A stretch of 33,906 nucleotides of DNA from a virus (lineage: Duplodnaviria > Caudoviricetes), in IMG/VR virus record IMGVR_UViG_3300005512_000164, positions 1 through 33,906 of that record. One strand, given 5' to 3'. A program made the translations under genes and the position numbers. The notes beneath the pieces were generated by a model. It saw only the letters and a list, made by a program, of their open reading frames with translations. It was not told the DNA's origin and searched no databases. Of the stretch, positions 13,018 to 33,574 are shown piece by piece (position 1 is the first letter of the stretch; every line of letters begins with the position of its first letter).

Positions 13018-13029
13018 TATGATATAATT
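13018..13029 (+). promoter_or_regulatory. Extended -10 promoter (TATGATATAATT) for the head operon
   Basis: Identical 12-mer to 353-364, immediately after the portal stop codon. Confidence 0.7.
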
Positions 13030-13102
13030 TGTGTATAGGTTACGAGCAATAAGTTATCTCACTAAAAGAACCTGACATTTCCCAATCAATGAAGGAAAAC
13101 TA

Positions 13103-13420: not shown

Positions 13421-13425
13421 GTACC

Positions 13426-14535: not shown

Positions 14536-14556
14536 CAAAAATACAAGGAGCCTATC

Positions 14557-15849: not shown

Positions 15850-15860
15850 CAGTAAATTTA

Positions 15861-15881
15861 GTAGAGGGTAACCCCCTCTAC
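15861..15881 (+). terminator. Stem-loop after the major capsid gene (weak terminator or mRNA stabiliser)
   Basis: GTAGAGGG-taacc-CCCTCTAC, an 8-bp perfect stem just after the stop codon. The U-tract is poor. Confidence 0.55.
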
Positions 15882-15910
15882 CTCTTAGAGAATAAAAATA
15901 AGGATATACA

Positions 15911-16465
15911 ATGAGTCAACATTTAGAGGAAAAGTCACTTCCAGAGTTACGTGATATTGCGGATGAGCTGGGTATAGAGTACCCTAATAATATAAGCAAA
16001 GCTAAGATTATTCAGAAGCTTGTCGAAGATGATGAAGCTGTGGAAGGTAAACCTGCTGATGTGGAAGGTGTTAAGGTTAAAAAAAGAGAGTCTGCTGCAG
16101 ACATTAAGGCACGTATGAATAAGTTAATTAGATTACGTGTTTCTAGTAATGACCCTCAGTATAAAGGGCGTAATGGTGTTACTCTTCAAGTAGGTAATAA
16201 GACTGCTGTAGTAGGTAAGTTTATCCCATTCAATACTATCTGGCACTGTCAAGAGCCGGTATTAAACTCTTTAAAAAGAAGACAGTGGAGACAAACTGTA
16301 TTTAAAACAGATAGAACTACAGGTATGAAAGTACCTGTAACTTCTGTACACCCTTCTTTTATTATTGAGTTACTCCCGAGTCTAACGGAGAAGGAACTTG
16401 CGAAGCTGGCTACAGATCAGTCTGCTCGAGGTTCTATACCGATGGATAGTGACACTAACGTTTAG
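15911..16465 (+). CDS. N4 gp55-like protein with an N-terminal Rho_N/HeH-like helical motif
   Basis: 184 aa. LPELRDIADELGIEYPNNISKAKI at the N-terminus; KLIRLRVSSNDP, VGKFIPFN..WH and FIIELLPSLTEKELAKLATDQ resemble gp55. Position right after the MCP matches N4. Confidence 0.75.
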   Translation: MSQHLEEKSLPELRDIADELGIEYPNNISKAKIIQKLVEDDEAVEGKPADVEGVKVKKRESAADIKARMNKLIRLRVSSNDPQYKGRNGVTLQVGNKTAVVGKFIPFNTIWHCQEPVLNSLKRRQWRQTVFKTDRTTGMKVPVTSVHPSFIIELLPSLTEKELAKLATDQSARGSIPMDSDTNV

Positions 16466-16470
16466 TAGAT

Positions 16471-16500
16471 AGGGCTCATGTATTCTCCTTCATGGGCCTT
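16471..16500 (+). promoter_or_regulatory. Intergenic RNA hairpin (10-bp stem with two G-U pairs, 10-nt loop)
   Basis: AGGGCTCATG-tattctcctt-CATGGGCCTT. Confidence 0.45.
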
Positions 16501-16534
16501 ACTGTATTAAACTACAACAACTAAAGGAATAAAT

Positions 16535-17002
16535 ATGCCTACGGAATATAACTCACAATTTGATAACTTGGTTAGGCCAGGTACTACTGGAGCATACGAG
16601 CCTATAGTATCTTCGTCACAAAGACAGTCATCACAGAACACTCCATTCGATTTGTACGGTGCGTTAAAGACAGGTGTTGGCACTGTACAGTCTATGTTTG
16701 CAGGTAACCCTTTAGCACAAACCGCAGGACTAGACCCGGTAATATATGCTAAACTATCACCCACAGAACAACTTCAAAGTCAAGAAGCTTTTAACCTAGG
16801 AGCAAAGAATGTTGCAGCTAATGAGTTTGATGTTACTGGTGCAGCCAACCTAGGTATAAGTGCGTTTAACGCATATAATACTAATAAGTATCAAAATGAG
16901 ATGATGGACACCTATAAAGCAGATTTAGGTATGAAGTGGAAAGATCAAGAACGTAGAGATGCTGTTAGAGACAAATGGTCATCAGCATTTCAGAACTCAT
17001 AA
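16535..17002 (+). CDS. Small internal virion/ejection protein (N4 gp52-like position)
   Basis: 155 aa, no Cys. Gly/Ala amphipathic segment (GAANLGISAFNAY) followed by a Gln/Asn-rich helix. Confidence 0.55.
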   Translation: MPTEYNSQFDNLVRPGTTGAYEPIVSSSQRQSSQNTPFDLYGALKTGVGTVQSMFAGNPLAQTAGLDPVIYAKLSPTEQLQSQEAFNLGAKNVAANEFDVTGAANLGISAFNAYNTNKYQNEMMDTYKADLGMKWKDQERRDAVRDKWSSAFQNS

Positions 17003-17015
17003 ATAAGGATTCTAC

Positions 17016-19604
17016 ATGGCATTAGGTCAAGCATTCCAACAAACCGTACGTGCACCTGAGTATAGAGACGTAACTTCAGGCTTACGTGAAACATTATTAC
17101 AAAATGAGGCTAGGCAGCGACAAAAAGATCAAGACTATTCTCAAGCACTACAAGACTATAAACCTACTGCAGAGCAACAGACTATTGCTGGTTCATTAGC
17201 TAGTACTAAGGAAGCTCTTACTTCAGAGTCTGAAGATAGTATCAATGCGTCTTATGATGCCCTAGCACTAGATACTGAGTACAGTAAGGCACTAAATAAT
17301 TTAGACGCTAGTTACACTACTGCTAAAGGCAGATGGATACCTACTTATGATGAAAAAGGTAATGTGACTAACTTTGATGCCACTGAAGAAGGTAAAGCGT
17401 ATAAGGATAGAGAACTAGAGTTTAATGAAAAATATCGCAACTACCGTAGTGCATTAGAACCTAAGTTACAAGGATTGAACGCTACTGCACTTTCCACTAT
17501 GAGTGCTGGGTACGATCCGGTTAAGTTACAATCTCGTATGCAAGAGGACCTTATATCCAAAGGGGTAGGGTTAGAGTCTGCACTTAAAGCTTCTACTGTA
17601 GCTGCACAACCATACCAAACTGCTCCGATAACAGAAGTAGAGAAGATAGCGTTACAAGCTAAGGTAGATCAAGGTAAAGAACTAACTAAGTCTGAACTGA
17701 ATACGTTAGAAAAACTTAGAGAAGGTAATGAGAAGATTACTAGGCTAGGTGGAGCTACTGTTAATCCTGATGGTAGTATTACGTATACTGGTAAAGGTGG
17801 TAAAGCTAAATCATATTCAGCTAATGAGATTAGGGAATCTCAGAAAGAGCTAATGGATACTTTTGATAATGTAGGTTGGGGTATATGGAAAGATAATAAA
17901 GATATTGTACAAGACTACTTGAATCCTTTGTACCAAGAATTCGCTGGTTACTTAACCCCTAAAGATATTAATGATGCTATTATATCTTTTAAAGATGATG
18001 GACTTATAAAAGATACTCTTAAGAGTGGTACTACTCCTGAAGCCGTAGCTAAAGTATTAAGAGATAAAGTAGCTACTACTGTTAAAGCTGGAGGTAGTGG
18101 TTATACTACTACTGGACAAAAAGCTATTAGCAATAAAGAATATGAGACTCGTAGAGCATCTATAGAAGCTAGAGGTAGTCAACGTATATCAGATGTATTA
18201 GCTCAATACACTAAAGGTAACAATAAATCTACAGGATTAGCAAATATACTAGCTCGAGTGAAAGATTACAATGCTACTGAAATTAATCCTACTATTCCTG
18301 GTACTGATAAAAAAGCTCCTAATAATGAAACACAAGTTACTAAAGCAGATAGGTATAAGTCCGGAACTGTCATAGGTGATGCTATGAACTCTAGCAAGAA
18401 AGGGTTACTAGCTAAAGCACTTATGAAAGATCCACAAAAGTTTGGAGAAGAGTTCAACAAACTTACAGATGCACAGCAGAAAAGTGTAACTAGTATATTA
18501 TCTTCTAAGACTAGTGAAAAAGTTATGACGGGTATAGCTACAGGAATCGAAGTTAATAAGGATAAACCTAGAAAAGAAGAGCCTTCTGTAGTAAATAAGC
18601 TAAAAGATACAGCAACCAATACTCTAACACCTGCTACAAAACCTACAAACTTGGTAGGTGATAAGTATGACGCTGACGCTAGGTTTATGGAACTGACAGA
18701 AGAGTTGCCTGAGTCATATTCAGACGCAGATAAATTCTTTCTACTTAAAAAACAACTTAAACAAAAAATTGATACTGGTACTTTAACACCAGAGGATGAG
18801 AAAGCTTTAAATTTCTATCAGTCTAAAATATCTACTGGTGAAAAGCTTAAAGGTTCTTCTAAATTTGGAGGAGAGTTTGTAGGTTCTATGTACAGTAAAG
18901 CAGCTTCTTCTGGAGCGGATACAGGGGAGTTTTTAGCTAATGCTTTACGTGTAAACCCTATAATAAACTCTGGGTTAAATCTTTTATCAGGTAAAGATTC
19001 TATAGTGGATAAAGATACTTTAACGTCTATAGCAGAAACCTTCGGAGGAGGATCTAAAAAAATATCTGAATTGGACGCTAATCTGGTTAATAGGATGTCA
19101 GAACAAACAGGTATCCCTACCTCTGAGATTAATAAGTATGCCACTGTAGGTTCGTTTTTACTCGCATTAGGTGGACCTCTAAAAGAACTTACTAAGTCTG
19201 TAATCAAAAAAGGTGGTAAAACCCTTAGTGATACTTTAGTTAAAGGTAAAAGAGTATCAGCTAAAAGAGCTAAAAAGAATCAACATCTTAAATCTGACGA
19301 ACCAATTATTGTTGGGCATGGTAAACCTAAAAATACAGGACCTACTAGTGTTTCAGACGATATTGATGAGTTAATTAATAGTACTGACCCAGTAAAACAG
19401 GCTATAGGTAAAGACATGAAACGTCAAGCCGCTGAAGTAGCTAAAGTAGCGGCTAAAAAATCTTCTTTGGAAGCTAGGAATTTAGTCACTAAGTTAGAAA
19501 AAAAGTTAGATAAACTCTACAACAACAATAAAAATAGTGAAGCTAATCAGATAGCTATAGAAGAGACTATAGAACAGATACGAAATTTACAGTCTCGATT
19601 ATAG
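17016..19604 (+). CDS. Internal virion/ejection protein (N4 gp51-like position)
   Basis: 862 aa, helical, Lys/Ser/Thr-rich, no Cys; directly upstream of the vRNAP locus. Confidence 0.55.
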   Translation: MALGQAFQQTVRAPEYRDVTSGLRETLLQNEARQRQKDQDYSQALQDYKPTAEQQTIAGSLASTKEALTSESEDSINASYDALALDTEYSKALNNLDASYTTAKGRWIPTYDEKGNVTNFDATEEGKAYKDRELEFNEKYRNYRSALEPKLQGLNATALSTMSAGYDPVKLQSRMQEDLISKGVGLESALKASTVAAQPYQTAPITEVEKIALQAKVDQGKELTKSELNTLEKLREGNEKITRLGGATVNPDGSITYTGKGGKAKSYSANEIRESQKELMDTFDNVGWGIWKDNKDIVQDYLNPLYQEFAGYLTPKDINDAIISFKDDGLIKDTLKSGTTPEAVAKVLRDKVATTVKAGGSGYTTTGQKAISNKEYETRRASIEARGSQRISDVLAQYTKGNNKSTGLANILARVKDYNATEINPTIPGTDKKAPNNETQVTKADRYKSGTVIGDAMNSSKKGLLAKALMKDPQKFGEEFNKLTDAQQKSVTSILSSKTSEKVMTGIATGIEVNKDKPRKEEPSVVNKLKDTATNTLTPATKPTNLVGDKYDADARFMELTEELPESYSDADKFFLLKKQLKQKIDTGTLTPEDEKALNFYQSKISTGEKLKGSSKFGGEFVGSMYSKAASSGADTGEFLANALRVNPIINSGLNLLSGKDSIVDKDTLTSIAETFGGGSKKISELDANLVNRMSEQTGIPTSEINKYATVGSFLLALGGPLKELTKSVIKKGGKTLSDTLVKGKRVSAKRAKKNQHLKSDEPIIVGHGKPKNTGPTSVSDDIDELINSTDPVKQAIGKDMKRQAAEVAKVAAKKSSLEARNLVTKLEKKLDKLYNNNKNSEANQIAIEETIEQIRNLQSRL

Positions 19605-19610
19605 TATAAT
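19602..19610 (+). promoter_or_regulatory. Possible -10 element (TAGTATAAT) upstream of the vRNAP locus
   Basis: TATAAT directly after the upstream TAG stop, AT-rich gap, AAAAGG RBS before 19635. Confidence 0.4.
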
Positions 19611-19634
19611 TATATAAATACATAAAGGCTTATA

Positions 19635-22607
19635 ATGGCACAATCAGCGTTTGCAGACATACAAGCTCCAGTAGTACCTGGAGTAGTAGATACATCCCTT
19701 ACAAGACAGACACCCCAACAACTAGATTCTATGTATAATACATATAATCCTATTATAGAAAGATCTAGATTACTTGAAGAACAAGCTGATAAGATACGTA
19801 ACTCTAAACTAAGTCAGAAACAGGCATCTATTGCGGATAAACTAAAGAGTAAACAGGAAGCTATTACGGGTGTAGGTTATACTGATACTGATGGCCATTT
19901 CGGAGAAGCTGTAGACGCAGCTCAATCGGGTATAGCTAAACTAGCTACTAAAGGTGTTAATGCCTTCGGTACATTAGGTATAGAAGCATACGATGCAGTT
20001 GCTGATGTAACTTCTGAAGAAAAGTCAGGGTACTATGAAAAGCTAAAACAGGTATCACCCTTTGGGGATTTAACGATAGGTGACGCATTAAATGAACAAG
20101 ATACTAAATTTGATTCAGCATTTGGTGTTAAACCAGAAAGTAGACAAAGACAACAAGTACTTAATCAAGCAGCAGAAAAAGCCCAATTAAGAGCTGATGC
20201 TGTACAAGTTACTGATATAGATTCATTTGGAGAGTGGGCTAATCACAAAACTGATCAGATACTTTTGAATATGCAAAATGCTCCGATGACTATAGGAGAT
20301 TCCATTCCAGAGTCTGCTGCACTAATATCTAGTACACTAGGATTACCCCTTGTTGTTGGTACTAGAGTTGCTACACACCATAACAATTATAAAGAAAACA
20401 ATGATGGCAATTCTATGTCTCTAGAAAAAGCCGCAGCTGTAACAGCTCTTACTACAGCCTCTCTGGGTACAGAAAAATTCTTAGTAAAAACAGGTATTGG
20501 TACAGTAGCTAAAAACTTACTAGGAAAATCAAAACTCCTAGATAGTGTAGCTGGATTCTTAACTACCGTAGGTGGTGAGTATACACAAGAAAGGTTTGAC
20601 TATACTGTAGAAAAATGGGCTGAACAAAAAGAAGGTACAGCTACGTTTGAAGAGATATGGAATTCCCATCGAGCAAGAGCTGCCGGTACCGCAGGTGCTA
20701 CAGCTGGTGGTGAGCTAATGGGTGCAGGTATGGCCGTTAAACAGGCTCCTGCTGCTGTTAAAGCAGTGACAAAACCGATAGTAGCTCCACTCAATGCTTA
20801 TGGTAAACGTAAAGCATCTCAACATCAAGAAAAGAAAAACTTAGAAGCAGCTAGATCATATGTTAAATCTGGGTATAACGATGCTGAAACCAAAGCTAAA
20901 CATGAGACTTCATTAGCTGTTGATTTACAGACACAAGAATCTGCTATTAAAACTTTAAAGGATGCCCAAGACACGATAAAAAACTTGGATAAAAAGGGTG
21001 GCAGCCCATTAGCCACTGTATTAGAAGTCCAAAAAGCTATGAATGTAGGCTATGAATCCGACAAGGCAGAAGATAACGTAATAGCTAGTTTAGGTGTAAG
21101 AGAGCTGTCAAACATACTAGACTCACTGACTCCTGAACTTAGAAGAGAAGTAGAGAATAGTGTTGACAAGAAGGTAGATACTCCACTAACCGTTCTATCT
21201 AAAGTAGGTATACTACTAGTTTCTAATAAAGAGTTACTGACACAAGAAATCAAAGATACCTTTAATAGTAATAAATCTGCTATAGAGGAACAAGCGGTTC
21301 AAGCTCTTAAGGATGGGGCGTTAGATATTACCTTTAAGCGTAGTATAGCTCAACTAGAGAGAGATAATAAAATAACATCTTCGGTAGCTAAAGAACTAGC
21401 TAGTATGTCAGATCCAAAATCCACTGTGGATACTCCATATAGTAGCTTAGTTAAGTTAGATGGTGAAGCACTAACTAAAGAACTGGCTAAATACGATGCT
21501 AAGGCGTTGAAGACTATTATAGATGAAGCTAAACGTAAGACTCGTGAATCTAGGTCCGCAGATAGGGATGTATTATCCAGTACTCAGATAGGGGTAATGG
21601 AAAAGTTCTACAAAGGTATCACTGGGGCTTTTAGTGTTAAACCTTCTGAGAAGATTGTTAAGGAGGTGCAGGGTATTAAACGTGCAAGGAAGCTAGCTAA
21701 AAGGCACTACGACCCTAAGAAGCCTTTAGGAGAGCAGTTTAAGGAATTCGTATCTGATATGAAAGGTAAGATAGCTGAAGCCGTTAAAACACCTGGGCAA
21801 GCTAATAAGCAAGACTTCGCCAATACGACTAAAGCTGTAATAGAGGCTGTAAATAACCTAGACCAGGTTAATGATATACCTTACGTACAAAAGGTAATTG
21901 AAGATCTGGAAGTTATAGGTGTTTTAACTAAAGCCAAAGCTGAATCTTTACGTAATAAAGTGCTAGAGTATTCTGAAAATCTTGATGTTGCTGATGGTGT
22001 ATTACGTCCTGGAGTAAAGAAAGGGTACGACACCTTAGTTAATACTGCTAAGACTTCTACGAAAGGGGACGTGGATAAAGCTATTGATAGCTTTCTGTCT
22101 AAACTTAAAGGTAGACTAACCGACACTGAACGTAAAGTTATTACTAAAGCATTAGCTAAACTAGAGAATCTTGGTAAGGCTTCTAAAGCTAAGGTTATCT
22201 CTGCTATAGATGACATAAGTGATGGAGATAAAACTATTAAAGAACAGTTACTAGGCACCTATGAAGCTATGCAAAAGACTATATCTGACACAGTTAAGGG
22301 TAGAGAAGTTTATGAGAAGAAAGCTGAAAGTGTAGTATCCAGCATTAGGGATTCTGCACTACGTAAAGAGGTAGGTAAAGACTTTGATAAGATATTTGAT
22401 AGTGTAATGACCAACCTTGGCAGTGTGAACATTAAAGAATCTTTTGATAAAATAACAAAGAAAGTAACTGATGCTGATTACCTGGCTATGTATCAATCAA
22501 TGAAAGATATTGGTGTCGTACAGAATAATGGTAAGAAAGTTAAACAAGTAGATAAAGTATTAGATGAGAACGGTAAACCGTTAATTAAAGAAGAGGTATG
22601 TAAGTAA
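19635..22607 (+). CDS. Internal virion/ejection protein; probable equivalent of the N-terminal domain of N4 vRNAP
   Basis: 990 aa. Gly/Ala hydrophobic segments (GGEYTQE; AAGTAGATAGGELMGAG) typical of ejected proteins. Single Cys at residue 989; stop overlaps the next start (TAATG). Confidence 0.6.
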   Translation: MAQSAFADIQAPVVPGVVDTSLTRQTPQQLDSMYNTYNPIIERSRLLEEQADKIRNSKLSQKQASIADKLKSKQEAITGVGYTDTDGHFGEAVDAAQSGIAKLATKGVNAFGTLGIEAYDAVADVTSEEKSGYYEKLKQVSPFGDLTIGDALNEQDTKFDSAFGVKPESRQRQQVLNQAAEKAQLRADAVQVTDIDSFGEWANHKTDQILLNMQNAPMTIGDSIPESAALISSTLGLPLVVGTRVATHHNNYKENNDGNSMSLEKAAAVTALTTASLGTEKFLVKTGIGTVAKNLLGKSKLLDSVAGFLTTVGGEYTQERFDYTVEKWAEQKEGTATFEEIWNSHRARAAGTAGATAGGELMGAGMAVKQAPAAVKAVTKPIVAPLNAYGKRKASQHQEKKNLEAARSYVKSGYNDAETKAKHETSLAVDLQTQESAIKTLKDAQDTIKNLDKKGGSPLATVLEVQKAMNVGYESDKAEDNVIASLGVRELSNILDSLTPELRREVENSVDKKVDTPLTVLSKVGILLVSNKELLTQEIKDTFNSNKSAIEEQAVQALKDGALDITFKRSIAQLERDNKITSSVAKELASMSDPKSTVDTPYSSLVKLDGEALTKELAKYDAKALKTIIDEAKRKTRESRSADRDVLSSTQIGVMEKFYKGITGAFSVKPSEKIVKEVQGIKRARKLAKRHYDPKKPLGEQFKEFVSDMKGKIAEAVKTPGQANKQDFANTTKAVIEAVNNLDQVNDIPYVQKVIEDLEVIGVLTKAKAESLRNKVLEYSENLDVADGVLRPGVKKGYDTLVNTAKTSTKGDVDKAIDSFLSKLKGRLTDTERKVITKALAKLENLGKASKAKVISAIDDISDGDKTIKEQLLGTYEAMQKTISDTVKGREVYEKKAESVVSSIRDSALRKEVGKDFDKIFDSVMTNLGSVNIKESFDKITKKVTDADYLAMYQSMKDIGVVQNNGKKVKQVDKVLDENGKPLIKEEVCK

Positions 22608-25600
22608 TGGCATGTGATAACGTAATAATTACTAAAGAGAACTATGAAGAAAGACCTAATGATAAAGAATTGAAGCAGTCTATATACTCAGCTAATATGA
22701 TAACTGATGAGATACTTACAAATCTATTCTCATCTGAAGTGTCTAACGCTAAACAGTTTGAAGAGCTTTTTGAAGGAGATAGTCCTACTATCCCCTATAA
22801 GTCTGTACTAGATAAGGTTAGTTCACTTAAGTATTTTGATGAATCTAAGATGCCATTTGGTAAGAAGATAGGGGAAATAGTTGATGGTGATGATATTAGA
22901 GATATTACTATAGCCTTATCACAACTAATATCTGTAAATAAGTCTGAACAAGACCTTACTAGAAAGTACAACTTAGACGCTAAAGCTGTAGAATCTGTAC
23001 AAGATAACACTGATCCATCTAAGTACCAAACATCTTACTCTAATATAGCTAGGACTATCGGTAGGGAAATACTAAAGACTAGAGGTTATAGACTTATACC
23101 TAAGAATGAAAAAGGTATAAAAGATTCTGTAGCTTATGAGACTAAAATAGGTGAGAAAGCCTTACAGAAGTTAGAGGATAGGGGTTTATTGTCCATTACT
23201 GAGTCAGGTACTATAGTTAACCGTAATTTTAGAGATCCTAATCCAGACAATATGAAGGATATAAACTATACTAAAGGTAAGCGTAAAAAAGTACTGACGG
23301 GTATAAAGACTGTTGTTCTACTAGACCTTATAGAAGATACAGCTACACAAGAGGACAGAAGATCTATATCTGGTAACATAGCTGCTACAAGGGCTTTAAT
23401 CAGCCCTCCAAATAGTGCCGTACCTAGTTCTACACCTAAAGAGATTAATCGTCAAGCCCAAGACATGAATATGCTAGATAAACATGAAGAAATACTAGAG
23501 CATGTACAAGATAACCCTTTAAGAGTTACACCGTTCATGAAAGAAGCTATAGATGACTTAAGTAAGAGAATTAAGTCGACTAAAGGTAGTACAAAAGGTA
23601 CTCTAATGGGATTAGCTGATTTTATAAGTAGTAGTAAATCTTCTCCTTTCTTATTTGGTACTATAGACTCTGAAGAATTAAACGCTATTATGATGGGAGA
23701 TCCTGTAGGTATAGAACAGAACTACGGTAGATCACAATCAAAGACTATACAATTCAGTAGAGTGTTAGATGTATGGGATGATTTACAAGATAGTTTATTC
23801 TACTCATTCCAAACAGCTAATCAAAATAGAGCTCATGTATTAGAGCAGACTTTATCTTATCAATCGGATAACTTCTTATCTAGGCATGTATTAGGTTCAG
23901 ATAAAGTACAAGAAATAGCGGATCCTGCAGATATACGTTATGTCATATCTTATATTGCAGATGAGACTGGATTAGCACCAGCGGATATTCTAGGTGGTAC
24001 TAAAAGCTCAGCACTATTGGATGAGTATGTAGGGTATTTAGATGACAAAGACAAGAATAATGACTCTGCTTTAGGTCTAATAGCTACTATGGCTAACAAC
24101 TTAGATAAAGGTAAAAGCCCTTTTAATAAGCCTTCTAAGTCTGCATGGGAACTAATGAGTTATGTACAGGCTGTTAAAGATATTAGAGATGGTATTAATA
24201 ACGATGGGGTAGTTAGAACACACTTCATGCCTAAACCAGATGCTACAGCTTCCGGAGCAGTTATTACATTACTACAAGCAGCTAGGTATGGTGGATATAA
24301 TGAAGAAGTAGCTAAAGACTTGATAGAAGGTAATCTAAAAGATGCATACGATTTATCAGTCAAAGAATTAGATTCCAGGCTTAAATCATTCTCTAATAAG
24401 ACTACTAAAGACGCTTTTAAAACTAGTCATAAAGATTCTTACCTACTAATAAAGAAATTATCTGATTATAAGACCGGTATTATAGATGGGCCTAGAGAGC
24501 TTATGAAGCTACCATTTACTAAATTTATCTATGGTCAAAATAAAGACAATAATGTACAAGAGATCACTAAAGAAATGGCTAGTCTTATTATTGAACAGCA
24601 AAAGACTGACCTAGCTAAAGAGATTCTTGGCGATAACTATACTGCAGATACTATAGAACTTAGAGCTGCATTAGAGAAAGAACTTGGTAAAGAGTATGGA
24701 GTAGCTTATGAACTAGTTACTATCATTGACGAGACTACTGGTAAATCATTATTTGATCGTCAAGGAGAAGAACTTGGGGATATGCACAAGCTTATGGAAG
24801 AAGCTAGATTCTCAGAAGGTTCCACTTATGGTCAGATTAAAGTAGTACCACCATTAGCTTGGATCAATAGCGATAGAGATCTTACTAACCTAGTTAATTA
24901 TGAAGAGATGCGTGATGGTAAAGAAGGTGAGAAAGGGTATGCGACAGTTATAGAAAAGTATTTTGAAGCAGTATTAACTGATAAAGATGGAGCATTGACT
25001 ACTATTAAGAAGAGATACCCTAATGAGAATAGTATTAAAGTACTTCTACAACATATGATGGATGCTGCTATTCTATATGAGTCATTAGGTGAGACAGAAG
25101 GCTTTGAAACTTACTTCAACGGCTTTATGCTTAACCATGACTCTATTGGTGCAGAAGTAACTTTTGCTAGAAACTTAGAACCAGTATATAAACGTAAGAC
25201 TATGGAAATCAATAGTGAGTATGATTTTAAAGAAGCCGCATTAATGGAATTAAAGTATGCTAGATCTAGAACTACTGAACCATCTTTACTAGAGAAAATG
25301 GATGCCCTTATAACTAAAACAGAGGAACAACTAAAGACTGAAATACCTAATAAGCAGAAGGTACTATCTAGTGGTAAAGGTATAATAGATAACGCTTTTG
25401 GAGTTAAACCTAGTGTATTAAAAGAAGCAGAAGCTTTAGATCTAAGCCCTAGAAGAGTTAAGAAAACTAAAGAAGGTAAAGTAGTAAATCTTAATGCAGA
25501 GAAAGAACTAAATAACCTACGTGAGCTTATAGAGAATGATCCTGACAGTGTTATTACTTATGACCTAGAAACTGATAGTGTAGACACTAAAGTAGCTAAT

Positions 25601-28600
25601 TTAGTTCAGATAGGGTACAAGAAGGGGACTAATCCAGCTACTAGCATTAATATACAGATGACTCAAGAACAGGCAGGTAAATATATAGAAGCTCTTAAAG
25701 GTACTCCTATAGAAGATTCTCAATTATATAAAGATATACTTTTAAATTATAGAGCTGATAACAATATGGCTGACTGGAATAAAGAAGCATTACCATTAGT
25801 AAAAGCTGTAAAAGAATTCAAATCTATAGTAGATGATAGTAAAGCTTTAGTTAGTTTTAATGGTAGACTGTATGACGATAAAGTACTTAAAGCGTATGGG
25901 GTTGATGTAAAAACTACTCATGATATGCGTAATTTATCTCAAGATTCTGTAGTTATTACAGGCAGCAGGAAAGGTAAGTTATCTGACTTAGCTGATAAAG
26001 CTAAATGGACTGAAGACCAACTACATAATGCAGATATAGATGTTGAAGTTACATTTGAAGCTATCGGTAGTAAGACTGAGACTAAACCTACTCCAGATAA
26101 CGTACTAAGTAAAGATGCAGTAGAAGATTTTAAATCTAACGTAAAGCTATTTAATAAAGTGAGTCAGACTATTATACTTGAATCTTTTAATGTTAACCCC
26201 AGTGTCAATATAGTTAGTTATACAAAAGATATAACTCCTTATTATGATTTAGCTACTAATACAGTACATGTAAATCAGACTATGAATGAAGAGCTATTTG
26301 CCCATGAGTTTGTACACGCTACTATTGCACAGAAAATAGAGAATGACCCAGTGTATGCTGGTAAAGTAAAAAAGCTATATGATAAAGTAATGAAAGAAGA
26401 CCCTTCTATTTTAGAAGGTTTAAAAGATGTACCTGACGCAGATATACTTCATGAATTTATGGCTGTAGCTTTAGCAGATAAAACTACTCGTAATAAATTA
26501 AAGAAAGTCCCATACGGTAAACGTATCATAGATGCAGCAGTCAAACTAGTATTTGCAGCTTTCGGTGTGTCTCCTAATAAATATGGAGATAGTGCATTAG
26601 GTGAGGCTATTACATTATTTTATGAAGCTACATACGATGATAGTATAGTTAATCCTGACAAAAAGTTGAACTACATAGATGTAGTTACAGAAAAATACAA
26701 GGGGTATCGGCCCGAATTAAAAGATAACAGAAGTATCATAGAAAGGACATCTAATGTAATGATAGATGTAGACTCCTATGTATCTAGTAAGATACAGTCT
26801 ACTATAGATTATACTATAGGTATAGATAGAGATAAAGAAACAATAACATCTAAGTCACATGACTACATGATGGAAAACTCTGATATATATAAGAATACAT
26901 TCAATGCTATTACTGATCAATGGGATAGTAACACTTTCATAAACAAAATGAAGTTCTATCTAGACTTAGATGAGAAAGCTAGGAGAAAAGAGTTTAATGT
27001 TTTAAATACGCAGTCTATTCATGCTGAAGAGCGTAAAGCACAGTTTGAAACTGATAAGATGAATGAACTGTATGATGATATTGAAGGACTATTCACTAAA
27101 GCAGAGACTTCTACATTATACAGTTTACTGAGTGAAACTCCAATAGCCTACCTAGGTAAAGATGATGTATTTAAAGGACTGCTAAAGAAAGAGTTTACTA
27201 TAGATGAGAAGATAAAAGATTTATTAGATAACAGTACATTAAATGCTAAAGCTAAGAAGAACATAGCTAAGAAGGCCCAAGAGTTATCTGAATTCTACAT
27301 AAATAAGAAAGCTCCAAAAGGATTAGCTACAGATAGAAATTTTGAAGGGGACAGTAGAGTATTGGTTGGTCAGCTATCTGCTTTATACGCTATGCAAAAG
27401 ATACCTAACGTAAATAGTATATTACATAAGATAAACTCTACTAAGAGGCATAGAAAAGTAGTAAATAAGCTATTAGAGCTATCTTCGGCAGTGCAAGTAC
27501 TAGATGATGAGTTATATGGTACTATATCTTTAAACTACGATACACATACAGGTAACCTTAACCATAAAGTGTTTGAGGGTAACATCGAAGTTAAGCATGT
27601 TAACGCACATACTATAAATAAAGAATTTAGAGAAGACTTGGGGTGGAAGATACTTGAGCACCCTGCAGACGGTAAAGCCGGTATTATGTATAGGAATGCA
27701 GGTGATATTACGTTCCAAGGTGGACTAGGTACACAACTAAAGTTACAACCTGACTTACAGGTAACTATACCAAAATCGTATGGCTTAGAAAGAAACAATG
27801 CTATGTCACAAGTAAATGGCGATAGATCTACTGTAGTGTTTACTAATGATCAACTAGATACTATGGGAATGGTTCGTGACCCTATCGTATCCTTAGTTAA
27901 AGGCTATTCACATAGAATGCTGTTACAAGAGACTCAATCTATCCGTAAAGAGCTAGTTAATGAGTTTACGGATGTATATAGTAAGAAAGATGACGATAAA
28001 TTAAAACAAAAGATAAAAGACAGAGAGCATAATTGGTACTTAAATCTTCCAGAAGGTATTACTATAGATCAACTACCTAAAGAAATAAGAAGTCGTTACA
28101 AGCTGTCTAGATCTTCATCGGACGTAGATGATTTTGCTTCACAAGTAACATTAGTAAGAAGTGATATGGCAGATTTCGTTGAAGGGTATAAAGAGATACA
28201 AATAGGTGGAACTAACACTAAATTGAATAAAGTATTTAGCGTAGTTAAGAAGACAGTATTACTTCAAAAGATCCACTGGGTAATTACAGCACCAGTAAAA
28301 ATAGCTATGGACACTACGTCTAACCTAGCGTATTTACTAAGTAGAAATATCCCTATTACTACTGTATATAGTAAGACTAAGCGTATAGCTAATGATATGG
28401 TAGAGTTTACTAAGTTAAGAGAAGAGTTATTACATGCTGAGTTTAAGAATAGGGCTAACCCTAGTAAGACGTTAGCTAAAAAGATTGAAAGTTTAGAAGA
28501 GAAGATAAAGACTCATAGAATGTCTTCAGCTTACTTTAGAGGATTTATACAATCTATTGCTATAGATATATCACAGAAGAATGAGCATACGGCAGCAGGC

Positions 28601-29347
28601 CTACATAAAGATGTTGGCAGTATACTTACCAAAATATTCAGAAACGATACTGGATCCTTAAACAGAGCAGGTAAAGCTGTAGATTACTTAAGTAAGTTTG
28701 CTATTAACGGTGAGGATATATTACTAAGAGTATCAGCAATAGCTAAAGCCAAAGGTAGTAGTAATGTAGCTAAAGCAACAGCCGATATGTTAGAGGATAT
28801 TGCCAATAATATAAAGAGAATTAAAGATAAAAGTGATGTCGAAGCTTACATACAAGAGTATATGGCTACTCCTGGTACAGCTTTAGTTAATGTAGGTTCA
28901 GTGCTAGTGCAAACTCCGGATGTTATAGCTAAAGTTATACTACATGAACATTTAGTAGAGCAGAAAGTAAGAAAGTATAGAGATAGTCATAATGGTAGAG
29001 GACCAGACAGGGATGCTCTATATGCTATTAATGAGGAGGCAGCAATAGAATCTGTCACTAGTTTTATAGATTATAAAATGAATATACCTAGGGAGCTAAG
29101 GTTGTTAGAGCAAACTGGTGTTACTAGCTTTATTAGTTTCTGGTCTAGAATTCAAAAAGTGATATTGGTAAGCTTAAGAAACAATCCTGTGAATGCTCTT
29201 ATCACAATTCTTATAAATGAAATGTTAAATCTTGATGGCGGTACTATACTTGATGCCAGTTTTGTAGAAAAATGGGGTTCAGGAAGTTTAGCGGGAAGTT
29301 ACAATCCTGGAATGGATGTTCTATTCCCTACTAAATTGGCAGGCTAG
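22607..29347 (+). CDS. Virion RNA polymerase polyprotein: single-subunit (T7/N4-type) RNAP + DEDDh exonuclease + zincin + helical C-terminal domain
   Basis: 2246 aa. RNAP motif A D545 (PDATASG), motif B R630-x3-K634-x7-Y642G, QHMMDAA, motif C HD845S. Exonuclease motifs D986xE988, N1085-x4-D1090, H1140-x4-D1145. Zincin HEFVH at 1233-1237. GAGGT RBS at 22593-22597. Confidence 0.85.
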   Translation: MACDNVIITKENYEERPNDKELKQSIYSANMITDEILTNLFSSEVSNAKQFEELFEGDSPTIPYKSVLDKVSSLKYFDESKMPFGKKIGEIVDGDDIRDITIALSQLISVNKSEQDLTRKYNLDAKAVESVQDNTDPSKYQTSYSNIARTIGREILKTRGYRLIPKNEKGIKDSVAYETKIGEKALQKLEDRGLLSITESGTIVNRNFRDPNPDNMKDINYTKGKRKKVLTGIKTVVLLDLIEDTATQEDRRSISGNIAATRALISPPNSAVPSSTPKEINRQAQDMNMLDKHEEILEHVQDNPLRVTPFMKEAIDDLSKRIKSTKGSTKGTLMGLADFISSSKSSPFLFGTIDSEELNAIMMGDPVGIEQNYGRSQSKTIQFSRVLDVWDDLQDSLFYSFQTANQNRAHVLEQTLSYQSDNFLSRHVLGSDKVQEIADPADIRYVISYIADETGLAPADILGGTKSSALLDEYVGYLDDKDKNNDSALGLIATMANNLDKGKSPFNKPSKSAWELMSYVQAVKDIRDGINNDGVVRTHFMPKPDATASGAVITLLQAARYGGYNEEVAKDLIEGNLKDAYDLSVKELDSRLKSFSNKTTKDAFKTSHKDSYLLIKKLSDYKTGIIDGPRELMKLPFTKFIYGQNKDNNVQEITKEMASLIIEQQKTDLAKEILGDNYTADTIELRAALEKELGKEYGVAYELVTIIDETTGKSLFDRQGEELGDMHKLMEEARFSEGSTYGQIKVVPPLAWINSDRDLTNLVNYEEMRDGKEGEKGYATVIEKYFEAVLTDKDGALTTIKKRYPNENSIKVLLQHMMDAAILYESLGETEGFETYFNGFMLNHDSIGAEVTFARNLEPVYKRKTMEINSEYDFKEAALMELKYARSRTTEPSLLEKMDALITKTEEQLKTEIPNKQKVLSSGKGIIDNAFGVKPSVLKEAEALDLSPRRVKKTKEGKVVNLNAEKELNNLRELIENDPDSVITYDLETDSVDTKVANLVQIGYKKGTNPATSINIQMTQEQAGKYIEALKGTPIEDSQLYKDILLNYRADNNMADWNKEALPLVKAVKEFKSIVDDSKALVSFNGRLYDDKVLKAYGVDVKTTHDMRNLSQDSVVITGSRKGKLSDLADKAKWTEDQLHNADIDVEVTFEAIGSKTETKPTPDNVLSKDAVEDFKSNVKLFNKVSQTIILESFNVNPSVNIVSYTKDITPYYDLATNTVHVNQTMNEELFAHEFVHATIAQKIENDPVYAGKVKKLYDKVMKEDPSILEGLKDVPDADILHEFMAVALADKTTRNKLKKVPYGKRIIDAAVKLVFAAFGVSPNKYGDSALGEAITLFYEATYDDSIVNPDKKLNYIDVVTEKYKGYRPELKDNRSIIERTSNVMIDVDSYVSSKIQSTIDYTIGIDRDKETITSKSHDYMMENSDIYKNTFNAITDQWDSNTFINKMKFYLDLDEKARRKEFNVLNTQSIHAEERKAQFETDKMNELYDDIEGLFTKAETSTLYSLLSETPIAYLGKDDVFKGLLKKEFTIDEKIKDLLDNSTLNAKAKKNIAKKAQELSEFYINKKAPKGLATDRNFEGDSRVLVGQLSALYAMQKIPNVNSILHKINSTKRHRKVVNKLLELSSAVQVLDDELYGTISLNYDTHTGNLNHKVFEGNIEVKHVNAHTINKEFREDLGWKILEHPADGKAGIMYRNAGDITFQGGLGTQLKLQPDLQVTIPKSYGLERNNAMSQVNGDRSTVVFTNDQLDTMGMVRDPIVSLVKGYSHRMLLQETQSIRKELVNEFTDVYSKKDDDKLKQKIKDREHNWYLNLPEGITIDQLPKEIRSRYKLSRSSSDVDDFASQVTLVRSDMADFVEGYKEIQIGGTNTKLNKVFSVVKKTVLLQKIHWVITAPVKIAMDTTSNLAYLLSRNIPITTVYSKTKRIANDMVEFTKLREELLHAEFKNRANPSKTLAKKIESLEEKIKTHRMSSAYFRGFIQSIAIDISQKNEHTAAGLHKDVGSILTKIFRNDTGSLNRAGKAVDYLSKFAINGEDILLRVSAIAKAKGSSNVAKATADMLEDIANNIKRIKDKSDVEAYIQEYMATPGTALVNVGSVLVQTPDVIAKVILHEHLVEQKVRKYRDSHNGRGPDRDALYAINEEAAIESVTSFIDYKMNIPRELRLLEQTGVTSFISFWSRIQKVILVSLRNNPVNALITILINEMLNLDGGTILDASFVEKWGSGSLAGSYNPGMDVLFPTKLAG

Positions 29348-29448
29348 GAGGAATTATTCCTTCTTTTACTGGCTTTTACCTCGTACATAACATTCGATAA
29401 AAGTACCAGTGCACTAATAACTATTTTTAACGTACCGTGAGTAAACAA
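29344..29448 (-). CDS. Unannotated 34-aa small membrane peptide (MFTHGTLKIVISALVLLSNVMYEVKASKRRNNSS)
   Basis: TTG start preceded by GAAAGGAGGTGAT; one hydrophobic helix and a basic tail. It fills the otherwise empty gap between the two convergent modules. Confidence 0.6.
   Translation of the reverse strand: MFTHGTLKIVISALVLLSNVMYEVKASKRRNNSS
29347..29367 (+). terminator. Putative intrinsic terminator of the late operon
   Basis: GGAGGAA-tta-TTCCTTC followed by TTTT, directly at the vRNAP stop codon. Confidence 0.5.
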
Positions 29449-29488
29449 TAGTATCACCTCCTTTCAATTAAGGTTCCTGGGTGTTATT

Positions 29489-30013
29489 TCAGGGTTTACT
29501 AACACGATTCAGTTCATCTACAACTAGTTGGGCAAATCCGCAAATGTCTCTATAATTGTCATCGTATGTTGGATCTCCATTAGCTATACGAGCTAGTTTA
29601 TGGAATATCATTTCTATAGCTTCAGACATGAATGGTTCAAACTCTTCAGGTCTACCGTATTCTTTAACGTGGTTATCGAATGTAGCTTTTAACTTTTGAG
29701 ATAACTGTGCATGGTTAGAAAACTCTCCGTAGCGAATACCTCTTTGTTTGAGTGTAGCTTCTACTGACTGTAGTTTCTCTCCAGCATCGTTAGTTTCAAA
29801 CTCTCCATATCTATACAGTTTAGCTCCATCTATTGGCTTGGTAATACCTACTCTTGCCTCAGATAAAGGGATTTCACGTTTCATAAGATCTTTGTTACTG
29901 TAGACTGTTTTATCTCGGACTTGGTTTGCTTCTTCACGATAACCACAAGATAGGCAGGATATAATTCCTTGACTATCTTCGTGTACCTCGTGGTTACATT
30001 TTTCACAGTTCAT
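29489..30013 (-). CDS. Zn-ribbon + DUF6378-like protein
   Basis: N-terminal CEKC...CLSC. C-terminal TLKQRGIRYGEF...EAIEMIFHKLARIANGDPTYDDNYRDICGFAQL is typical of DUF6378. Confidence 0.7.
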   Translation of the reverse strand: MNCEKCNHEVHEDSQGIISCLSCGYREEANQVRDKTVYSNKDLMKREIPLSEARVGITKPIDGAKLYRYGEFETNDAGEKLQSVEATLKQRGIRYGEFSNHAQLSQKLKATFDNHVKEYGRPEEFEPFMSEAIEMIFHKLARIANGDPTYDDNYRDICGFAQLVVDELNRVSKP

Positions 30014-30198
30014 TAATCATCTCCTGTCATATCTGAGGTGTCTGGTTTAGACTCCTCTATTTGTTGTCTAGCTACATCTATACTATCTGCACCATAGAAC
30101 TCTGCTTGAAGTTTGTTCATGGCATCAGCTTTCAATCTAGGGTGAGCACTAGATACCGCTATCGAAGCTCGTTTTCTTTCGAATTCTAACCTATCCAT
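30013..30198 (-). CDS. Hypothetical protein
   Basis: 61 aa; overlaps both neighbours in a translational-coupling arrangement. Confidence 0.55.
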   Translation of the reverse strand: MDRLEFERKRASIAVSSAHPRLKADAMNKLQAEFYGADSIDVARQQIEESKPDTSDMTGDD

Positions 30199-31222
30199 CT
30201 AAGGTACTCCATTTAGTGTAATCTATGTCACCCCATGATCCCTGGATATTCTTAGAGTATTCAGTAACAGAACCTGCGAAGAAATCTGTAAGTACTGTAC
30301 CTACAACGTCATCCATGTAAGCTAACGGATTAGTAGTAGTTCCATAGTTCTTCTTCATACCGAGTTCATTTAGAGCAATATCTGCACGATATTCTGCGTA
30401 TCTTTTTAGAGATTCATTAGACATATGTGGAGGATTCAAGTAATCTATGAGTGTGTGCTCATAAGCCACTGTTTCTCGTATAGCTTCATAGATGTCATAC
30501 TTTAACTCATCAGTCCATATGTCCATGTTCTCTTCCACTGTTTGTCTGAATAGTGCAGAATTACCTAGTCCATGTATAGTTTCTTCTTTTATCGAGTACT
30601 CAACTATAGTACAAAGTCCAGGATATTTACCTTCAAATTGATACTTAAGTAATGCTGCAAACTGTGCCATAAGACTAATCCACTCTGCTCCACCACCGTA
30701 GGTAGCTAACATACGAAGTACATCAGATCTAAAGACTTTATCTAGTTCTATATTTGATAGATTCATAGATTTGTAGTCTTCATACTTCTTTACTTTCGCT
30801 TTATCTAGGTACTCGGTCTTTAACGCCATCTGTGGTATATCTAGAAAGTCGGAGTATATGGAGTTAGGTAATCCAATAGTTTCAGTAAATAAAGAGTAGT
30901 TCTCAATATGTGTGTACTCTCTAGCCATGAAATTGGATAACATAGCTTGTACTTCCATAGGTTTAAATATGCGTAACATAGTTGCGTATCCTGTACCTAC
31001 TACTACTTCATTCTGAGTAAATAGTCTCATAACATTAGTGATGAATTCTTTTTCCTCTGGTGAAGCTCGTTGAAAGTCCTGTAAATCTTGGTTAAGATTA
31101 ATCTCGTCACTGGTCCAATGCATCCTATCGTGTTTCTTATAGAACTCCCAGAACTCAGGGTATCTAAAACCCTTAGCTCCTTTAAATGTAGAAATCCCAT
31201 TCATGTGTAGTAAGTTACTCAT
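30191..31222 (-). CDS. nrdB: Ribonucleotide reductase class I beta subunit
   Basis: 343 aa. HWTSDEI, E102-x2-H105-x3-Y109, E180, E214-x2-H217 and C-terminal DFFAGSVTEYSK. Confidence 0.93.
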   Translation of the reverse strand: MSNLLHMNGISTFKGAKGFRYPEFWEFYKKHDRMHWTSDEINLNQDLQDFQRASPEEKEFITNVMRLFTQNEVVVGTGYATMLRIFKPMEVQAMLSNFMAREYTHIENYSLFTETIGLPNSIYSDFLDIPQMALKTEYLDKAKVKKYEDYKSMNLSNIELDKVFRSDVLRMLATYGGGAEWISLMAQFAALLKYQFEGKYPGLCTIVEYSIKEETIHGLGNSALFRQTVEENMDIWTDELKYDIYEAIRETVAYEHTLIDYLNPPHMSNESLKRYAEYRADIALNELGMKKNYGTTTNPLAYMDDVVGTVLTDFFAGSVTEYSKNIQGSWGDIDYTKWSTLDG

Positions 31223-31746
31223 TATTTATTCCTTTCAGCGTTACCGCTTTTATACTTTGTTTTTAGTACATCAAGAGTAAATAGTTCACTACGTTTATAG
31301 TACTCTATGAACTTACCTTTACGCATACTGCGAATATGTTGAGCTGTAACCTGTGGGTACTTTAACGCCATATCCTTAGCTGTATCTGTACATGTCATAA
31401 TATCATGCATCTGCTCTATGGTTAGCTTTTTTCTAGGAGTACGTAGGTTAGTATCTAATGCATGTTGGTTATTCTCACTATCGGTAGACCACTCAAGGTT
31501 AGATACATCATTATTAGACTTATTGCCATCTATATGATTTACCGTCCTTTTGTTTTCTGGGTTAGGCAGGAACTCCTTAGCTATTAATCTATGTACACGT
31601 TTCTTTGTAGGTACCTTATCTATGTATAAGGAAACAACAGGGTACCCTTTTGGGTCCGTGTTGATTGCTAAGAACTTATTAGATACTTTACTGAATACTC
31701 TTCCATTACTATGTAATGTATAATTATTATATAATGCTACTTCCAT
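31222..31746 (-). CDS. Free-standing HNH homing endonuclease (HNH_3 type)
   Basis: 174 aa. YTLHSNGRVFS...GYPVVSL...RVHRLIAKEFLPNPENKRTVNHIDGNKSNNDVSNLEWSTDSENNQHA, plus a C-terminal HTH-like segment. Confidence 0.9.
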   Translation of the reverse strand: MEVALYNNYTLHSNGRVFSKVSNKFLAINTDPKGYPVVSLYIDKVPTKKRVHRLIAKEFLPNPENKRTVNHIDGNKSNNDVSNLEWSTDSENNQHALDTNLRTPRKKLTIEQMHDIMTCTDTAKDMALKYPQVTAQHIRSMRKGKFIEYYKRSELFTLDVLKTKYKSGNAERNK

Positions 31747-31772
31747 TTTACTTCCTTGGTTAAGATGCTTGT

Positions 31773-31781
31773 ATTATACCA
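31773..31781 (-). promoter_or_regulatory. Extended -10 promoter (TGGTATAAT) for the HNH gene and possibly nrdB
   Basis: The minus strand reads ...TTTGGTATAATAC...AAGGAAGTAAAATG in the nrdA-HNH gap. Confidence 0.6.
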
Positions 31782-31798
31782 AAGAAAGTGCAACGAAG

Positions 31799-33574
31799 TC
31801 AAGAGCAACCTATACACGTGTCTGAAGTTAGCTCATCCATTGTAGTTCCTTGTTCGATATGTTTACGTCCATCTGATGATGTAGAAGCCCTAGTTTCAGC
31901 ACTACTACGTAAATAGTAGAGTGACTTAACTTTCTTTTTCCACGCTAAGATATGAAGGTCTGATATATACTGTACATGACTTCCACCGGGTACAAATAAG
32001 TTCAATGACTGAGACTGATCTATAAACTGCTGTCTATCCCCTGCCATCTCAATAACCCATCTCTGGTCTATCTCGAACGCAGTCTTAAAGACATCCTTCG
32101 TATTCTGATCCATCCAATCTAGATGCTGTACTGAACCATTGTTCTTCTTAATAGAAGCCCACTGTTCGTCATACCAGGATTGGCTACTATCTAACATCCC
32201 ATCTCTGATATGCTTATCTAGGTATTTATTTGTAATAGCGAATGAGCCCTGCTTCACTTTCTTTGTGAATGCGTTAGTAACCCAAGGTTCAATACCTGAA
32301 CTAGTTACATTACATAAACTAGATATAGACATGGTAGGTGCTATAGCTGTAACGTGAGTATTTCGTTTAAGTCCACCATTAGCTCTGATAGATAAAGGAC
32401 AGGGTTCAGTAGGATTAGACGTATTATGTCTATCTGCCGAGTCTTTAATCTGTTTAAATATCTTCATATTCAGACCCTTCGCAATAGCTGATTCCCAAGG
32501 TATCATCTTAGACTGTAATAAACTATGGAAGCCCATAACACCTAATCCGATGCTGCGTTCGTCTATAGCTCCATTTCTGGCTCTCTCGAATCCAGGTAAT
32601 CCTTCAGTTCTGTCGATAAAGTCTTGAAGTACATTATCTAGGTAATCTGTACAATCTGCTATGAACTGGTCAAAATTAGATTGATACTCATCCCAATACT
32701 CAAGATTAATTGAGCCAAGACAACAAACACCACTGTGATTATCATCCGTTCGAAGTGCGATTTCGACACACAAGTTGGAAGTAGATACTTTAATCCCTTC
32801 ATGCTTATATTCCTCTGGAGCTAGTTCATTTACTGTATCTATAAATAAAAGATAAGGCTCCCCTTTAAGAGTAGACCTAACCTCTAACAGTTGTATCCAT
32901 AGTTTCCTAGCTTTGACTGTTTTAACTACTGTTTGGTCTTTAGGAGATATAAGATCCCAATTAGAATCAGATAGTACAGCTTCCATAAAAGCATCTGGTA
33001 TAACTACACCATGATGTAGATTTGGTGCTCTACGATTTTGATCTCCAGTAGGTTTACGTAAATCTATAAACTCTTCTATTTCTGGATGAGCGATATTTAA
33101 GTAGACAGCCTCAGAGGCTCTCCGCAGTCCACCCTGACTAATGGCAAGGGTGGAACGATCTGAAATCCCCATGAAAGGTATGATGCCTGAAGAGGAACCT
33201 CCGTGTTTTCCGACTGAGGCGTTAACTTCTCTGACTGAACTCCAATCAGTTCCAATTCCACCTCCGTAAGCACCGAGGTTGAACGCTTCGTTGTAATTCT
33301 GGAAGATTCCTGGTTTGTCGTCACTGACTGACTTGGTAAAGCAGCTAATAGGCAATCCACGATTTGTTCCTCCGTTAGAGGAGATTGGGGTACTTGGGTG
33401 AAACCAGTAGTTTTTGACATATTTTTCCATCCTCATAGCGTGTTGTGGGTCATTAGCATAAGCGTTAGTTACTCGTTCTACCCATCCCTGATAGTCTTCA
33501 GAGGGTAGAAAATAAGTATCTTGGTACAGCTTTTTGCTGAATTCGGGGAGATTTTCCCACCCTCTGTCAGTCAT
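31799..33574 (-). CDS. nrdA: Ribonucleotide reductase class I alpha subunit (short form, no ATP cone)
   Basis: 591 aa. GLPISCF, GGGIG, TSNLCVEI (NxCxE), VCCLGS, AIAPT, DQSQSLN, KSLYYLR and a C-terminal CIGC. Confidence 0.95.
   Translation of the reverse strand: MTDRGWENLPEFSKKLYQDTYFLPSEDYQGWVERVTNAYANDPQHAMRMEKYVKNYWFHPSTPISSNGGTNRGLPISCFTKSVSDDKPGIFQNYNEAFNLGAYGGGIGTDWSSVREVNASVGKHGGSSSGIIPFMGISDRSTLAISQGGLRRASEAVYLNIAHPEIEEFIDLRKPTGDQNRRAPNLHHGVVIPDAFMEAVLSDSNWDLISPKDQTVVKTVKARKLWIQLLEVRSTLKGEPYLLFIDTVNELAPEEYKHEGIKVSTSNLCVEIALRTDDNHSGVCCLGSINLEYWDEYQSNFDQFIADCTDYLDNVLQDFIDRTEGLPGFERARNGAIDERSIGLGVMGFHSLLQSKMIPWESAIAKGLNMKIFKQIKDSADRHNTSNPTEPCPLSIRANGGLKRNTHVTAIAPTMSISSLCNVTSSGIEPWVTNAFTKKVKQGSFAITNKYLDKHIRDGMLDSSQSWYDEQWASIKKNNGSVQHLDWMDQNTKDVFKTAFEIDQRWVIEMAGDRQQFIDQSQSLNLFVPGGSHVQYISDLHILAWKKKVKSLYYLRSSAETRASTSSDGRKHIEQGTTMDELTSDTCIGCS

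Follow-up and report, generated by a model that had tools for sequence, protein, structure and literature searches.

Known virion RNA polymerases and related systems

The virion RNA polymerase (vRNAP) of phage N4, gp50, is a single chain of 3500 amino acids (aa) without cysteine, in which an N-terminal domain (NTD), the RNA polymerase (RNAP) and a C-terminal domain (CTD) follow one another. Its gene lies in an operon behind those of the ejection proteins gp52 and gp51, as does that of its counterparts in other Schitoviridae, such as gp71 of phage DEV (PMC13434306, PMC11445570). In the gp71 homologues of 191 Schitoviridae, cysteine has a frequency of 0.00075% (PMC11445570). Here we describe an N4-type vRNAP that is divided between two adjacent genes, with a lone cysteine at each new end, in a 33,906-nucleotide stretch of viral DNA (IMG/VR record IMGVR_UViG_3300005512_000164). 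This whole stretch is hereafter called the window. The two-gene protein resembles N4 gp50 in operon position, domain order, fold, polymerase motifs A–C, near-absence of cysteine and total size (3236 aa). In contrast to the single N4 chain, it is cut at the linker between the NTD and the RNAP.

How a protein of at least 350 kDa passes through a 35-Å tail channel is an open question. Scarcity of cysteine has been treated as a requirement for injection, and on this basis the enzyme of the Alteromonas phages AD45-P1 to P4 was judged by its authors not to be injected. These phages have a verified two-gene vRNAP, ORF127 and ORF126, both products of which appeared on gels, at 270 and 175 kDa; the main text does not say whether the gels were reducing (PMC3821669). 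Because the two products run separately, the halves are not spliced into one chain. The split in AD45 is already published, read there as a sign of a protein that stays outside the host; the terminal position of the cysteines goes unremarked in the passages covered (PMC3821669). The break in AD45 lies behind the polymerase, in another linker than that in the window, and in AD45-P3 we find Cys2493 of 2495 residues and Cys4 of 1409, and no others. GenBank tags the two-gene polymerase of AD45-P3 (KF005318; L021, 18438–30162) as a 'potential frameshift' and gives no coding sequence, and the paper verified the stop; loci tagged in this way are likely intact.

The same break as in the window is present in two other isolated Alteromonas phages, PT11-V19 (OP751378; lone cysteines Cys997 of 1000 and Cys6) and R22Y (PP212876; Cys1004 of 1008 and Cys6), both at about 23% identity to the window. 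A 2083-aa vRNAP is reported in the R22Y paper, the passages covered mentioning neither the upstream half nor the cysteine (PMC11705849).

Cyanopodophage A4 (A-4L) likewise has adjacent ejection genes with sole cysteines at their facing ends: Cys1715 of gp27, the third-last of 1717 residues, and Cys5 of gp26, which has 1114 aa. In contrast to the window, no polymerase is involved, and comparison of gp26 and gp27 with four polymerase-side profiles detected no homology. Cryo-electron microscopy (cryo-EM) of A4 revealed a disulfide between these two residues in the packed core of the virion. In that paper the bond figures as a detail that adds stability, and a linker role is not proposed in the Discussion (PMC12002296). 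Our literature search, which also drew on PMC4496689 and PMC10579305, found the AD45 split and the A4 bond described separately and, with subscription journals largely outside it, no source linking terminal cysteines to breaks.

A split polymerase with a cysteine at each facing end

The features of the two-gene polymerase, in order of position in the window, are as follows.

19635–22607, + strand: 990-aa NTD gene of the vRNAP, ending ...IKEEVCK-stop, with Cys989 as its sole cysteine
22593–22597, + strand: GAGGT, a Shine-Dalgarno-like site judged from sequence, 9 nucleotides 5' of the second ATG
22599–22601, + strand: TGT codon of Cys989, an invariant column among 16 NTDs at 14–23% identity to that of the window
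22605–22609, + strand: TAATG stop/start overlap (TAA 22605–22607, ATG 22607–22609)
22607–29347, + strand: 2246-aa RNAP+CTD gene, N-terminus MACDNVIITK, with Cys3 as its sole cysteine
22607–25426, + strand: T7-like single-subunit RNAP domain, residues 1–940, with motif A (D545), motif B (R630, K634, Y642) and motif C (D845)
22613–22615, + strand: TGT codon of Cys3, kept in 16 of 16 close homologues
25484–26086, + strand: likely DEDDh-type exonuclease-like insert between polymerase and CTD, from weak Pfam matches
26087–29347, + strand: CTD, free of cysteine, matching phrog_2206 (virion RNA polymerase, E 1.7e-26), best over 1901–2236

An earlier note on this DNA, made from the sequence alone, had reported two coupled open reading frames (ORFs) of 990 and 2246 aa, the TAATG overlap and a GAGGT ribosome-binding site, and all of the coordinates were reproduced. 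The overlap likely couples translation of the two ORFs. Our recount also agrees with the note that each half has one cysteine, at residue 989 of 990 and residue 3 of 2246, and that the 155- and 862-aa proteins encoded upstream have none. Given one cysteine per protein, the probability that both fall at most seven residues from the facing ends is 2.2e-5. The four ejection genes together have 2 cysteines in 4253 aa, where about 22 would be expected from the 19 other ORFs counted in the window (35 cysteines in 6759 aa). The break is real, because it recurs in 17 other distinct loci, two of them from isolated phages. A further contig, JGI11705J14877_10000344 (L008), equals the window over 12607–29529 with 0 mismatches; it may share data with the window and is not independent of it.

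Predicted fold and sequence motifs together confirm the 2246-aa protein as an N4-type vRNAP with its CTD. Polymerases of the N4 type travel in the virion, are injected into the host and recognise hairpin promoters. The model of residues 1–940 has a mean predicted local distance difference test (pLDDT) score of 91, and its best two Foldseek matches are the N4 mini-vRNAP structure 2po4 (E 5.3e-14) and 9pnq (E 8e-14), with a template-modelling score of about 0.46. Identity to the mini-vRNAP in the structural alignment is about 12%; motifs A–C are spaced as in N4 and are invariant across 42 sequences. A profile of 16 close homologues aligns to N4 gp50 at an offset of about +1000. Since the low-complexity linker of the N4 polymerase comprises residues 907–1006 (PMC13434306), the break corresponds to the N4 linker between NTD and RNAP. 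Fold, motifs and offset thus agree with the proposal of the earlier note that the locus is a vRNAP cut near N4 residue 1000.

The likely exonuclease-like insert sets the protein apart from N4 gp50 and its counterparts in Schitoviridae. It matches Pfam RNase_H_2 (E 6.9e-4) and RNase_T (E 0.032), both below the curated cut-off. Exonuclease-like motifs also appear in the consensus of relatives that consist of the RNAP only, and one relative (P0067) passes the RNase_T cut-off, the distribution among relatives being patchy. The CTD opens with an HExxH motif (H1233–H1237; 26303–26317, + strand), and H1233, E1234, H1237 and E1283 are invariant in the 16 close homologues. A search of the PDB with the polymerase profile gave two weak matches over the HExxH region, to internal virion proteins 23sg_S and 9sfn_G, and a PDB sequence search with the single protein gave nothing relevant.

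A profile built from 17 other upstream proteins detects the 990-aa protein (E 4.7e-32, in a 2-sequence database). A second profile, of all 18, was compared with 13 sequences, to which its E-values refer. It aligns to the N-terminal part of five of the six fused close relatives and of all four proteins that combine NTD and RNAP, and has no match to N4, phi50-12 or D505. From these matches to the N-terminal part of fused relatives, the 990-aa protein is therefore an NTD. As a lone query it retrieved no protein but itself, and phage records gave no match. Its model is helical, with low confidence (pLDDT 54), and a fold search with this model returned no match. A hydropathy scan, at the threshold used, missed the NTD of N4 itself and so says nothing about the 990-aa protein.

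Terminal cysteines accompany breaks in related polymerases

The break of the window, in front of the polymerase, is represented by 18 distinct junctions at the DNA level, the window included. The 18 upstream proteins, 18,299 aa in total, each have a single cysteine, 0–4 residues from the C-terminal end, and all 18 downstream proteins have one at position 3–6. The 15 close polymerase homologues all share the start site and have the cysteine at position 3 or 4. Repeat or near-identical junctions were not counted (L006, L008, L009, L016, L026, L027, L030, L031 and 16 of the 18 in one further locus set), and five loci are without the junction (L005, L007, L010, L012 and L022).

We also tallied 67 full-length polymerase proteins, with classes set by length and profile coverage. 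Cysteine positions were visible together with coverage, so that the assignment was not blind; the classes are widely separated in length.

RNAP+CTD (split in front): N-end cysteine in 41 of 41, C-end cysteine in 0
RNAP-only (split on both sides): cysteine at both ends in 13 of 13
NTD+RNAP (split behind): C-end cysteine in 4 of 4, N-end cysteine in 0
Fused one-piece proteins: terminal cysteine in 0 of 9

No native end in the tally has a cysteine. This tally and the 18 NTDs bear out the expectation of the earlier note that terminal cysteines would be kept in split relatives and missing from fused ones. Internal cysteines number 4 in 136,642 aa and form the CxxC pairs (residues 778–781) of two sister proteins, P0011 and P0012; L007 has a similar CxxC pair. 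At the junction ends the cysteine alone is conserved and the neighbouring residues vary. It stands at position 3–6 in 54 of 54 N-ends, never at position 1 or 2, and histidine is found near it in 4 of these ends and in 1 of 18 C-ends.

The tally omits 15 apparent fragments (P0018–P0021, P0027, P0037, P0047, P0055, P0057–P0061, P0063 and P0064), together with P0062, which clusters with P0031, and P0070–P0075. The sequence of P0061 lies within P0073, and P0073 begins inside the linker of a relative of the fused type. Scans of viral contigs with single proteins, and scans of genome contigs, found no relative, hence no three-gene locus at the DNA level. Six proteins (P0033, P0034, P0039, P0042, P0050 and P0053) form a clade of compact one-piece cysteine-free polymerases of 2658–2838 aa, shorter than the polymerases of Schitoviridae, which are reported at 3476 ± 176 aa.

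Origins of the breaks and variation at the junction

We placed the breaks on a quickly built 67-row tree of the catalytic core, on which fission and fusion are not distinguishable. The front break is a single change that unites 54 rows (support 83). The rear break, behind the polymerase, requires a minimum of seven changes, and five of five independent pairs track the C-end cysteine. The hypothesis that the rear-break proteins form a single clade is rejected (p of the approximately unbiased test 0.0005; 1e-33 for the RNAP-only class alone). The site of the rear break also varies, lying 5' of the HExxH region in most proteins and past it in P0048 and P0049. Judged from the sequences, the break in the window is one old event, apparently held by selection at 20% identity. 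Since the front break is a single event, independent support comes from the rear break.

Sixteen junctions differ in the gap between the genes (-4, -1, 0, 2, 3, 9 or 12 nucleotides), occupy two frames, and use all three stops and both cysteine codons; the junction in L013 carries a double stop. Recoding is unlikely because junction spacing varies, and because gap, frame, stop and cysteine codon all differ, selection acts on the cysteine residue. We rejected programmed frameshifting or readthrough, as no conserved frame relation or signal is found among the 16 junctions. Split inteins consist of halves of a HINT domain with a nucleophile at the first position. A split intein or trans-splicing was rejected, neither protein having a Pfam match to one and the cysteine never standing at position 1 or 2. 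An assembly artefact was rejected as well, the break recurring in isolated phages and the AD45 stop having been verified.

A probable disulfide in place of the peptide linker

It is likely that a disulfide of some kind forms between these cysteines. Going by the sequence pattern and the A4 analogy, we favour, with some reserve, the reading that a tail-to-head disulfide between Cys989 and Cys3 replaces the linker and that the halves are co-ejected as one thread. The two halves would be co-translated and would dock non-covalently during packing in the reducing cytoplasm, the juxtaposed thiols oxidising after lysis. Mispairing would be impossible, because thiols are otherwise missing from the four ejection proteins. 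During infection the chain would open to beads on a string to pass the channel of about 35 Å (PMC13434306). Such passage would break the docking surface and leave the covalent bond intact, so that the NTD, following the tunnel protein and leading the polymerase as in the N4 model, would draw the polymerase behind it. The CTD is reported to serve encapsidation and the NTD injection (as cited in PMC3821669), and each half would therefore need the other. That the exceptions to cysteine scarcity fall exactly at chain cuts argues that ejection needs continuity of the chain and not contact alone.

The tail-to-head disulfide was proposed in the earlier note, and that part of its claim stands as the likeliest chemistry, with the A4 cryo-EM structure as precedent. 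The note went on to see in the bond a redox-cleavable linker that frees the polymerase from the membrane-associated half. We do not retain this function: a peptide linker serves the one-piece relatives, in the N4 model the polymerase stays tethered by that linker, and the same cysteine pair also marks a different break, behind the polymerase. The bond would probably be reduced in the cytoplasm, plausibly as a consequence that is tolerated and not as its purpose.

Several points weigh against this account. For this polymerase family the bond and the contact between the halves are inferred from the cysteine pattern and from A4, whose gp26 and gp27, being without homology to the polymerase profiles, provide an analogy. 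The conservation pattern would look alike for a disulfide or another thiol link, formed at any time. The front-break cases are one long-kept inheritance and are not independent, and the sign test for the rear break reaches a p of 0.0625 only. Moreover, the AD45 paper gives two cysteines in ORF127 of AD45-P1, where we found one in AD45-P3. All 13 RNAP-only proteins and three of the four NTD+RNAP proteins are known as proteins alone, so that their partner genes and true ends are putative. Finally, five untallied proteins (P0018, P0070, P0064, P0021 and P0057) stop mid-chain without a cysteine and are not marked partial; these ends may be assembly errors or true exceptions. P0018 and P0070 share one end, where the last residues are unlike those of homologues, and P0064 stops elsewhere, all three near the HExxH region; from their sequences these three look like assembly errors.

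Among the other explanations, it is unlikely that the disulfide serves only to lock the packed core of the virion, for stability or stoichiometry, with ejection depending on other contacts. In A4 the bond does reinforce a helix-in-cleft contact within a mortise-and-tenon core (PMC12002296). However, such a stabiliser could occupy any site of an interface, whereas the cysteines here are found only at ends that are peptide-joined in fused relatives, and their pairing is always in gene order. We give no greater weight to a redox switch, in which the polymerase must be released from the membrane half through reduction in the host cytoplasm, an idea that is compatible with a single thread. The bond would end up in the cytoplasm in the N4 model, and release at a rear break would shed the CTD, which inhibits the polymerase of N4. 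Nevertheless, the nine fused relatives tallied here and the fused polymerases of Schitoviridae manage without release, and in the N4 model, as described in the sources covered, the polymerase stays anchored and pulls the DNA in.

A metal clasp, for example of zinc held by the four thiols of two heterodimers, would be workable in the reducing cytoplasm where packing takes place and would suit the roughly four polymerase copies that N4 is described as carrying. We nonetheless consider it improbable, because the cysteines have no conserved second ligand, to judge from the rarity of nearby histidine noted above, the only solved analogue (A4) was modelled as a disulfide, and the link would likely not survive threading. 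About as improbable, or slightly more so, is that thiols left free in the virion are linked by host periplasmic DsbA during ejection. Periplasmic oxidases are the usual explanation for cysteine scarcity in these proteins, and would find a clean substrate in a lone pair; the polymerase is thought, however, to travel inside a tunnel and not through the open periplasm, and the A4 bond is already present in purified virions. There is hardly any chance that a nucleotide signal for frameshifting or readthrough gave rise to the cysteine codons incidentally, or that the break is an assembly error. The TAATG overlap and the use of TGT, the commoner codon, would fit such an origin, which is largely refuted by the variation among the 16 junctions, the double stop in L013, the presence of the break in isolated phages and the confirmation of the AD45 stop by PCR resequencing (PMC3821669).

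If a disulfide does stand in for the linker, the isolated phages PT11-V19, R22Y and AD45 offer a handle, as the domains would come apart with a single point mutation or on addition of a reductant. We also raise, tentatively, the broader possibility that terminal cysteine pairs are a general and repeatedly evolved substitute for linkers in tailed phages. On this view, ejection genes would tolerate a cut at any domain boundary, disulfides formed after lysis would restore one thread that passes the tail in gene order, and cytoplasmic reduction would free the polymerase or shed an inhibitory domain.

Ejection genes and other features of the window

Upstream of the polymerase, the window has the following features.

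11044–16465, + strand: N4-like portal, gp58-like, gp57-like, major capsid and gp55-like genes, from PHROG matches
16535–17002, + strand: 155-aa ORF, 0 cysteines, placed by position and size
17016–19604, + strand: 862-aa ORF, 0 cysteines, placed by position

In N4 the ejection genes are in the order gp52-gp51-gp50, and the genes of the window fit this order in position, size and lack of cysteine. By position and size the 155-aa protein is likely an N4 gp52-like ejection protein, and by position the 862-aa protein is likely a gp51-like periplasmic tunnel protein. Neither has a sequence match in Pfam or PHROG. In 17 related loci, the one or two genes 5' of the NTD gene encode 33 proteins, all of which have 0 cysteines.

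In N4 the tail tube and plug genes are found between those for gp55 and gp52, a place where the window (8293–16465 region) has no genes. ORFs of 281 and 621 aa located 5' of the portal gene are candidates for the tail tube and plug, and the same gap is present in L032. BLASTP of these two ORFs against N4 gp54 and gp53 gave no match. The 281-aa virion-region protein (8293–9138, + strand) likewise starts MACD, with Cys3. Other terminal cysteines are seen in N4 gp54, which starts MSC, in a 123-aa protein of AD45, which starts MACS, and in a 126-aa ORF of the window, which ends ...SCPIV. On the basis of these sequences, terminal cysteines may recur in tail proteins.

The structural genes follow the N4 order, and the capsid protein is 40% identical to N4 gp56; on this sequence evidence the window represents the structural half of an N4-like phage. 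The 33.9-kb assembly is the window alone, with the early region lying outside. Traits listed for Schitoviridae also include a two-subunit RNAP II, terminal repeats and a podovirus shape (PMC3821669). The block typical of Schitoviridae is present (N4-type portal, gp58, gp57, capsid and gp55), whereas in place of one cysteine-free vRNAP chain of about 3500 aa there are two chains with one cysteine each. We therefore file the phage as an N4-like relative and not within Schitoviridae. Source names of Sulfurovum genome bins on three relatives at 44–46% identity (P0018, P0064 and P0070) are a weak hint at the host group. Promoter-like sites are fewer in the window than in shuffled sequence (28 versus 46), and a terminator search of the + strand found none. 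Genes for the large and small subunits of ribonucleotide reductase are located at 30191–33574 on the - strand, with an HNH endonuclease gene (31222–31746) between them.

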